A stretch of DNA of 43,730 nt from a virus (taxonomy: Duplodnaviria; Heunggongvirae; Uroviricota; Caudoviricetes): the IMG/VR virus record IMGVR_UViG_2617270944_000006; one strand, written 5' to 3'. A program made the position numbers and the translations under genes. Position 1 is the first letter of the stretch; every line of letters starts with the position of its first letter. The notes under the pieces are model-generated. The model searched no databases. It was not told the DNA's origin and saw only the letters and a program-made list of their open reading frames with translations. Positions 29,826 to 31,451 of the stretch are shown piece after piece.

Positions 29826-31020
29826 GGAAGGTGCGAATAAGCGGGGAAATTCTTCTCGGCTGACTCAGTCATTTCATTTCTTCATGTTTGAGCCGATTTT
29901 TTCTCCCGTAAATGCCTTGAATCAGCCTATTTAGACCGTTTCTTCGCCATTTAAGGCGTTATCCCCAGTTTTTAGTGAGATCTCTCCCACTGACGTATCA
30001 TTTGGTCCGCCCGAAACAGGTTGGCCAGCGTGAATAACATCGCCAGTTGGTTATCGTTTTTCAGCAACCCCTTGTATCTGGCTTTCACGAAGCCGAACTG
30101 TCGCTTGATGATGCGAAATGGGTGCTCCACCTTGGCCCGGATGCTGGCTTTCATGGATTCGATGTTGATGGCCGTTTTGTTCTTGCGTGGATGCTGTTTC
30201 AAGGTTCTTACCTTGCCGGGGCGCTCGGCGATCAGCCAGTCCACATCCACCTCGGCCAGCTCCTCGCGCTGTGGCGCCCCTTGGTAGCCGGCATCGGCTG
30301 AGACAAATTGCTCCTCTCCATGCAGCAGATTACCCAGCTGATTGAGGTCATGCTCGTTGGCCGCGGTGGTGACCAGGCTGTGGGTCAGGCCACTCTTGGC
30401 ATCGACACCAATGTGGGCCTTCATGCCAAAGTGCCACTGATTGCCTTTCTTGGTCTGATGCATCTCCGGATCGCGTTGCTGCTCTTTGTTCTTGGTCGAG
30501 CTGGGTGCCTCAATGATGGTGGCATCGACCAAGGTGCCTTGAGTCATCATGACGCCTGCTTCGGCCAGCCAGCGATTGATGGTCTTGAACAATTGGCGGG
30601 CCAGTTGATGCTGCTCCAGCAGGTGGCGGAAATTCATGATGGTGGTGCGGTCAGGCAAGGCGCTATCCAGGGATAACCGGGCAAACAGACGCATGGAGGC
30701 GATTTCGTACAGAGCATCTTCCATCGCGCCATCGCTCAGGTTGTACCAATGCTGCATGCAGTGAATGCGTAGCATGGTTTCCAGCGGATAAGGTCGCCGG
30801 CCATTACCAGCCTTGGGGTAAAACGGCTCGATGACTTCCACCATGTTTTGCCATGGCAGAATCTGCTCCATGCGGGACAAGAAAATCTCTTTTCTGGTCT
30901 GACGGCGCTTACTGCTGAATTCACTGTCGGCGAAGGTAAGTTGATGACTCATGATGAACCCTGTTCCATGGCTCCAGATGACAAACATGATCTCATATCA
31001 GGGACTTGTTCGCACCTTCC
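29826..31020 (-). mobile_element. IS5 insertion sequence (about 1195 bp) with 16-bp terminal inverted repeats and TTAG target-site duplication
   Basis: Left end ggaaggtgcgaataag at 29826-29841; right end cttgttcgcaccttcc at 31005-31020; ttag immediately flanks both ends. Confidence 0.9.
29972..30952 (-). CDS. insH: IS5 transposase InsH (DDE family)
   Basis: [64 protein letters not shown]... matches IS5 InsH as recalled. Confidence 0.9.
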
Positions 31021-31058
31021 TTAGACTAATGAAAATCAGACAGCAACTTTTCCTTTAA

Positions 31059-31451
31059 TTATTTCGAACAATCAGCATCCATCTCCAATCGGAGATCCAA
31101 CACCATCAGCATGCCCTCCACTACGCCCTCAGCTTTCTGGAGCATCCTGCCAACCCAACAATCAGATCGCCCATGCTTACGTGCAAGCGCCATAAAAGTC
31201 ATGCCGCCGACATAATAGTCCACCAATAAATCATGTAAATCGCTGTTGTTTTTTTTCAGGCGAGCCATACATTCACAAATGATCATCGCGTCATCGTCAC
31301 AGCATTGCGGACGAGATCTTACTTTTGAAGGAATTAATCCCTTAAAACCGGCGGCAATGGACGACCAGGTCACATCTTCATGATTATTAGCCGCCCATGC
31401 CCCCCAACGCTCAAGAACCATCTGAATATCACGCATCAACTTACTCCACAA
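31059..31451 (-). CDS. Late-gene antiterminator Q (QuuD-like, about 130 aa)
   Basis: Small Cys-containing protein ([13 protein letters not shown]) upstream of the lysis region and downstream of ydfU-like, the Q position in lambdoid phages; size matches the short Q family. Confidence 0.65.

Follow-up and report, generated by a model that had tools for sequence, protein, structure and literature searches.

Described relatives of the arrangement

The arrangement considered here is an insertion sequence (IS) element, IS5, placed directly past the Q antiterminator gene of a lambdoid prophage (IMG/VR record IMGVR_UViG_2617270944_000006; the whole stretch of 43,730 nucleotides is referred to as the window). 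The reading favoured below, which is given an even chance of being correct, is that the late promoter survived whole just beyond the far end of the element. A loosely analogous described counterpart is IS5B of the DLP12 prophage in E. coli K-12. Both are the same element, with 16-bp repeats and a 4-bp target duplication of the form YTAR, and both have a QuuD-type Q gene on one side and lysis genes on the other. In MG1655, however, IS5B lies within the porin gene nmpC, 252 bp past quuD, and points the other way, whereas the IS5 of the window lies 38 bp past Q, in non-coding DNA and in the direction of the late genes. The analogy with DLP12 drawn in an earlier note on this DNA thus holds for the placement between Q and the lysis genes and fails for distance, setting and orientation. 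Strain C600 carries, besides the nmpC copy, a second DLP12 IS5 at 95 bp past the quuD stop; this copy (L174, 2504-3698) sits at a TTAG in TATAGTTAG|AAGCAAGG.

A second group of relatives comprises the insertions that activate glpFK, flhDC and fucAO, described by the Saier laboratory. In these cases the ins5A promoter of IS5 is distal and its 3′ end proximal to the activated promoter, and activation of glpFK requires a DNA bend and a binding site for integration host factor (IHF) (PMC2753651). Readthrough from the ins5A promoter into flanking DNA has also been documented (PMC11894529). The window shares with this group the CTAA target and the repeated use of the same site. The activating insertions, however, owe their selection to a known growth or motility phenotype and are situated approximately 100-170 bp upstream of the start, or further, whereas the junction in the window lies at -48 of one candidate late promoter or inside the other, with a terminator within 64 bp.

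Among the phages with a related Q, phage 21 has a late promoter in which two TGAGCA Q-binding repeats separate the -35, TTGACA, from the -10, with a pause element TAAGCT at +2 to +7 (PMC6606751); the T-run of its terminator ends at approximately +55. The window resembles phage 21 in having a Q protein of family PF06530 and in the order of Q, candidate promoter and terminator within approximately 55 nt. It differs in that neither the TGAGCA direct repeat nor TAAGCT is present. Phage 933W (with Sp5, an Stx2 phage) is closer in sequence: its Q is approximately 80% identical over residues 1-120, and the terminator stem, the hexamer TATCAT and part of the StxS region are shared. The mapped start in 933W, 258 nt before the end of the terminator tR′, fits TTTACG-N16-TATCAT overlapping the Q stop codon. 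The putative -35 and -10 annotated in the Stx2 phage I record were rejected, as they do not fit the mapped transcript start. The 933W promoter overlaps the Q stop, contains the perfect palindrome TTTACG-AT-CGTAAA and precedes a 258-nt leader, whereas the window has a different presumed DNA-recognition helix in Q, an imperfect palindrome and a predicted leader of approximately 46 or 80 nt.

The 933W-type promoter design was derived from 80 loci of other species. It begins with a perfect palindrome, TTTACG-NN-CGTAAA, that overlaps the -35 and is followed 16 bp on by the -10 hexamer; beyond the -10 come an invariant AAGNNT, a 5-bp hairpin, ACAGCTTA and a terminator near +50. The palindrome lies at 1923-1936 of the Stx2 phage I record (L001), and further loci carrying it fall within L087-L166 (e.g., L098 versus L099). 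Its centre covaries with a residue of the presumed DNA-recognition helix of Q: TA accompanies SDG in 19 of 20 loci, and AT accompanies SDT in 13 of 13. The 933W sequence, TTTACGATCGTAAA, is AT-centred, and the SDG relatives have the TA-centred version. This covariation marks the palindrome as the probable Q-binding element of the Stx-phage-type Q. Other Q subfamilies have other palindromes at the same position (TGTAATTACA and GCGGTCCGC). The window has no TTTACG palindrome.

IS5 between Q and tR′

The element in the window is a standard IS5 that has transposed into a CTAA of the 98-bp spacer between the Q stop codon and tR′. The features concerned are as follows.

29826..31020, minus strand: IS5, 1195 bp, recognised by terminal repeats, duplication and identity to K-12 IS5
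29822..29825, no strand: left copy of the target-site duplication TTAG, read from the sequence
31021..31024, no strand: right copy of the target-site duplication TTAG (late strand CTAA), read from the sequence; single copy in empty sites
31059..31436, minus strand: Q antiterminator gene, 125 aa, intact, stop codon 31059-31061 (Pfam PF06530)
29731..29761, minus strand: intrinsic terminator, tR′ homologue, AGCCAGCCTCCCCAAAGGCTGG followed by T7, found by terminator scan and folding

Read from the sequence, the element is full-length. Both terminal inverted repeats, GGAAGGTGCGAATAAG and GGAAGGTGCGAACAAG, are present, in agreement with the approximately 1195 bp and the 16-bp repeats beginning GGAAGGTGCGAA by which IS5 is defined, and the TTAG duplication has the form YTAR. 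The element is identical to IS5 of K-12 strain C600 at 1191 of 1195 positions (four mismatches). Its transposase open reading frame (29972-30988, 338 aa) is intact and lies on the minus strand, in the direction of Q and the late genes; matching genomes annotate the element as an IS5 transposase. The ins5A promoter end is thereby turned towards Q, with the 3′ end towards the late side. A gap of 38 bp (34 bp plus the 4-bp duplication) separates the Q stop codon from IS5, and 64 bp separate IS5 from the terminator.

The terminator consists of a stem of nine pairs (29761-29738) followed by seven T residues to 29731, is predicted on the minus strand only, and folds with -14.2 kcal/mol. Its stem, GCCAGCCTCCCC...GGCTGG, has the same sequence as that of tR′ in 933W/Sp5, where Term-seq located the 3′ end of the StxS RNA at the terminator (PMC7547250). 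Judged from this shared stem, the terminator is a homologue of 933W tR′. The locus has one feature of a Q-dependent late cassette, an intrinsic terminator shortly past Q on the late strand with the late genes beyond it. Three claims of the earlier note are borne out by these results, namely that an intact IS5 with a TTAG duplication lies just past Q, that a strong minus-strand terminator follows at 29731-29761, and that the insertion falls in the region of Q, late promoter and terminator.

The insertion was compared with a set of 5,426 complete E. coli genomes, using as the query the window sequence minus IS5 and one TTAG. The IS-free sequence is found at 100% identity in many of them; at least 80% of a 402-nt query is covered in 1,083 of the 5,426 genomes, and at least 80% of a 138-nt query in 1,096. 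Carriers of the intact spacer include E. coli HS and a BL21(DE3) derivative, and the IS-free arrangement is also present in phage genome records (Lambda_ev066 and 1H12). The existence of identical empty sites proves the insertion. The alignment with uninterrupted relatives that had been proposed earlier yielded the empty site, although it did not locate the late promoter with certainty. Such an insertion is an ordinary event: IS5, the Q type, tR′ and IS elements in prophage control regions are already known, and this exact insertion is already present and annotated in public genomes.

Candidate late promoters in the spacer

The favoured late promoter, candidate B, would lie just past IS5; promoter, terminator and Q would then all be intact, and Q would act in trans. 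It comprises the following elements.

29798..29811, minus strand: imperfect 14-bp palindrome GTTGGA-AT-CGCAAC, including TTGGAA (29810-29805); candidate Q-binding element and -35 of candidate B
29784..29789, minus strand: candidate B -10, TATCAT; overlaps TATTAT and TATAAC; variants GATCAT and TACCAT
29774..29779, minus strand: CAGCTT motif at or just past the predicted candidate B start (~29778/29777); conserved in related leaders

Read on the late strand, candidate B is GTTGGA-AT-CGCAAC, 8 bp, TATCAT, ATAA and CAGCTT. It lies wholly on the late side, with TTGGAA 15 bp from the IS5 end. One argument for it comes from 933W. TATCAT is the same -10 hexamer, and the palindrome of the window, at -34 to -21, has the same offset from it as TTTACG-AT-CGTAAA has in 933W; within the palindromes, ATCGCAA of the window and ATCGTAA of 933W stand at equal offset from TATCAT. 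The putative Q-binding sequence in the window is GTTGGAATCGCAAC. A matrix of the family promoter, built from 19 related promoters, gives its best hit in the spacer at candidate B (P = 0.18 against shuffles). Conservation points the same way: between the window and ev066, identity is approximately 97% from AATCGC to the terminator but only approximately 80% in the 35 bp next to Q. DLP12-like phages, which are without the rival candidate A, share the pattern of a -10 hexamer with ATAACAG after it. The short distance from promoter to terminator is normal for the group, at approximately +55 in phage 21 and approximately +50 for the first terminator in 933W-type relatives.

In the proposed mechanism, IS5 ends at -48 of candidate B and would have replaced only distal upstream DNA. 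Transcription would start near 29778, and the leader RNA, approximately 46 nt long, would stop at tR′. Q, although its early operon is now 1.2 kb further off, would still load in trans on the RNA polymerase at candidate B, and the Q-bearing polymerase would then pass tR′, the cargo genes and their terminators to reach the lysis and structural genes. The argument of the earlier note that Q, acting in trans, tolerates such a separation is sound, and the distance from Q stop to late promoter in relatives naturally ranges from 3 to approximately 170 bp. On this reading late control is probably kept. Promoter strength may change, as the bent 3′ end of IS5 with its IHF site adjoins the promoter.

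Several results weigh against candidate B. The 15-bp spacer between TTGGAA and TATCAT is poor for sigma-70, and the counterparts in ev066, TTAGAA and GATCAT, are weaker. The likeness to the family promoter is not significant, either in the matrix scan or by nhmmer (E ~1-4; a first nhmmer profile of related promoters had been contaminated by coding-sequence matches). Past the predicted start there is no good -10-like pause element, only CAGCTT. TATCAT is also the loop of an inverted repeat, GTTAT-TATCAT-ATAAC (29794-29779). Downstream of candidate A, the cluster around it might serve as a pause site instead, or form the loop of a hairpin in the leader (GUUAU-UAUCAU-AUAAC); related leaders have a 5-bp hairpin followed by ACAGCTT, which fits the leader-hairpin view. 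In the relatives that have the SDCW helix (P0003, P0004, P0009 and P0025), the DNA downstream of Q is unrelated (hok/sok, methylase), and no shared palindrome or site was found there. Of the hexamers that had been proposed earlier beyond the IS5 end, TTGGAA, TATCAT (at the 15-bp spacing) and TATAAC are indeed present; they are candidates for the late promoter, with a resemblance to 933W that falls short of significance.

The main rival, which is possible although doubtful, holds that IS5 has split the real late promoter, candidate A. This candidate begins 13 nt past the Q stop and was not noticed in the earlier note.

31041..31046, minus strand: candidate A -35, TTGCTG, on the Q side of IS5, read from the sequence; invariant in the relatives examined
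29819..29824, minus strand: candidate A -10, TAACAT, on the late side; complete only as the duplication restores TAA

In the uninterrupted spacer this promoter would read TTGCTG (31046-31041)-N17-TAACAT with a start near 29811. Its leader of approximately 80 nt would hold the palindrome, the TATTAT/TATCAT cluster as pause, CAGCTT and tR′. IS5 would then part the -35 from the -10 by 1.2 kb, leaving no promoter-proximal paused complex for Q, and the prophage would be locked, with no lysis and no virions save for weak readthrough from upstream. With 17 bp, the spacer of candidate A has the optimal length, and the hexamers include TTG and TA..AT. None of the relatives examined departs from TTGCTG, and TAACAT, which varies to TAATGT, TAATAT and CAACAT, always keeps A at position 2 and T at position 6. 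An AAATGT (of the form NANNNT) stands 3 nt past the -10, like the AAGNNT of related promoters, and the end of IS5 offers no -35 hexamer in place of the lost TTGCTG. In the fold of the predicted 79-nt leader, a long hairpin at the 5′ end precedes the terminator (-23.3 kcal/mol, z = -3.8), and the layout of hairpin, AGCUU and terminator is that of related leaders. Moreover, the homologous stretch of 933W is transcribed as the small RNA StxS, whose seed GUAACGAAGUU resembles GCAACGUAGUU in the window (PMC7547250). Set against this, candidate A matches the consensus at only 7 of 12 positions, lacks a palindrome at the family position and occupies the least conserved part of the spacer. The 26 bp that form most of it are absent from DLP12-like phages with a closely related Q. 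The pause element, at +20 to +28, would lie further downstream than in lambda, phage 21 and phage 82, and the variants seen give no clear support to the leader RNA hairpin.

Several tests bear on both candidates. In a consensus promoter scan neither passes, candidate A being broken by IS5 and candidate B having the 15-bp spacer. The NANNNT motifs near the two starts, AAATGT for candidate A and CAGCTT for candidate B, are both weak, and the imperfect palindrome at the family position belongs to candidate B. The key positions of both are conserved among approximately 200 related loci; with few variants among these loci, neither covariation between Q and DNA nor clear compensatory changes in the hairpin were found.

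The choice of promoter also bears on whether an StxS-like RNA is made. The StxS seed GTAACGAAGTT (GUAACGAAGUU) corresponds in the window to GCAACGTAGTT (GCAACGUAGUU), with 9 of 11 positions identical. Transcription of an StxS-like RNA with this rpoS-pairing seed would require candidate A to be the promoter here. The Stx2 phage I record contains, between late promoter and tR′ (L001, ~2047-2214), GGAAGGTGCGA, an 11-nt match to the IS5 terminal repeat. The order in the 933W leader is this match, TAATTAA, AATCGCA, GTAACGAAGTT, TAACAGC and the same terminator stem, and TAATTAA is the sequence around the Q stop codon of the window. From this order, the leader and StxS region of 933W appears to be a relic of a module like that of the window.

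Prophage setting, recurrence and significance

The window corresponds to an entire lambdoid prophage, Qin-like in character, whose late genes are read from the minus strand. The early side of that strand holds the integrase (42435 onward), a hok/sok module, rem, a DUF968 gene (31454-32503) and Q. Rfam matches are a cspA-type thermoregulator leader (24181-24597, minus), sok (33468-33642, minus) and DicF (38924-38975, plus), a set that confirms the Qin-like character; the same scan gave no family match within the spacer from Q to the terminator. The late genes comprise an S21-type holin (26502-26717), lysozyme, Rz, terminase, portal, tape measure and tail genes. Q, a 75-bp conserved block ending in tR′ and all the late genes are intact.

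The Q protein scores 171.6 bits against PF06530 (cut-off 26; E 6.9e-51) and matches the solved structures of phage 21 Q, 6p18 and 6jnx (E 5e-9), a protein of which it is a distant relative. It is approximately 79-83% identical to the Stx-phage (933W type) Q, its presumed DNA-recognition helix reading SDCWVGRM against SDTCIGKR in 933W. The allele of the window (K40R, G55E) is found in 52 related loci. At window position 31034 (late strand CTGATT[N]TCATTAG), all four bases occur among close spacers (T, G and C, with A in the ev066 type), each tied to a particular Q allele. In two Q relatives with the SDCW motif and 141 aa (L169 and L171), the Q stop overlaps a strong TTGAAA-N16-TAGAAT promoter, which appears to drive the hok/sok module directly 3′ of Q.

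Three cargo genes lie between Q and the holin gene, the first of which is listed here.

29180..29704, plus strand: lipocalin (Blc-like) cargo gene, antisense to late transcription, first of three (Pfam PF08212)

The other two, encoding a YbgA-like protein and an AraC-type regulator, occupy 26908-28987 on the minus strand, and terminator-like sites are found at 26839-26808 and 27962-27942. Q-modified polymerase would have to read through all the cargo genes and these sites. Lambda_ev066 and 1H12 have the order Q, lipocalin, YbgA-like gene, a 243-aa hypothetical open reading frame (AraC-type in the window) and holin, with no IS.

An IS5-family element occupies the junction in only 4 of the 5,426 complete genomes. 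Strains S171-1 and EC20-72C-1 have the same IS5 junction as the window. Strain J6 has IS5 in the same CTAA on a variant spacer (ATTGTCA in place of ATTTTCA), with rusA-ylcG upstream of Q in place of the DUF968 gene. Strain S1-CAM-01-A carries ISKpn26, which is 91% identical to IS5, in the same CTAA. All of these insertions share one orientation, and they look like approximately three independent events (IS5 on two spacer variants, plus ISKpn26). The spacer holds six YTAR sites, of which the insertions use one; since this one CTAA was struck approximately three times, it is, on the genomes compared, a hot spot for IS5-family elements. Other elements listed near Q (IS903B, IS2, IS1203, IS3 and some ISKpn26) were set aside, as their positions are within or past blc, or within the AraC gene, and not in the spacer.

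Two observations from incomplete sequences concern the same region. The IMG/VR contig L255 has IS5 (1914-3108) at the same late-side junction (CTAACATTTTAAATG), and on the other side unrelated DNA with CTAA at its end. This points to an IS5-mediated rearrangement, in which recombination between IS5 copies would have removed the Q side. Draft contigs L020, L032, L042, L078 and L082, as well as L038, L048, L049 and L063, end at fixed points near Q, either exactly at the Q stop or 155 bp past it, just beyond the lipocalin stop. Such ends suggest further repeat or IS insertions there in other strains.

It is improbable, although arguable from the recurrence, that the insertion was selected, with the bent, IHF-binding 3′ end of IS5, or transcripts running on from its transposase promoter, altering expression of the late-promoter leader or the cargo. 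The approximately three events in one CTAA of six YTAR sites and in one orientation would fit this, as would the arrangement itself, with a CTAA target, the 3′ end of IS5 nearest the downstream promoter and the ins5A promoter at the far end, as in the described activation cases and glpFK in particular (PMC2753651). Transcripts begun at the ins5A promoter are known to cross IS5 and enter the genes beside it (PMC11894529); tR′, 64 bp past IS5, would nevertheless stop unmodified transcripts. The insertion is present in only 4 of approximately 1,100 carriers and is without a known phenotype, three events share one orientation by chance with a probability of 0.25, and IS5 hot spots can come from DNA structure alone.

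A Q-dependent promoter outside the spacer, e.g., just upstream of the holin gene, is similarly unlikely; it would make IS5 neutral for late control and leave the terminator at 29761-29731 only to end early-operon transcription past Q. A promoter-like TTATCA-N16-TATGAT (26925-26898) with a terminator (26839-26808) does stand upstream of the holin gene, and studies of K-12 place the DLP12 lysis-gene promoter beside essD (PMC7918800), but that site has the appearance of the AraC cargo gene's end and terminator, every characterised relative has the late promoter and first terminator directly past Q, and the terminator here is the tR′ homologue.

The meaning of the insertion depends on which promoter is the real one. 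If IS5 lies upstream of the late promoter, as in the favoured reading with candidate B, then a separation of 1.2 kb between Q and its target does no harm. If it splits the late promoter, the prophage cannot lyse its host, and the insertion would be a clean one-step domestication at a recurrent site. There is also a slim chance that the CTAA 15 bp upstream of TTGGAA serves as a selectable prophage switch, either locking the late operon by a split promoter or raising, by way of the IS5 bend and IHF site, the output of a short StxS-like leader RNA. It would be a counterpart, in prophage domestication, of the IS5 insertions linked to stress at glpFK and flhDC. The palindrome of the related Stx phages bears on the control of toxin expression, and this finding may be more useful than the insertion itself.

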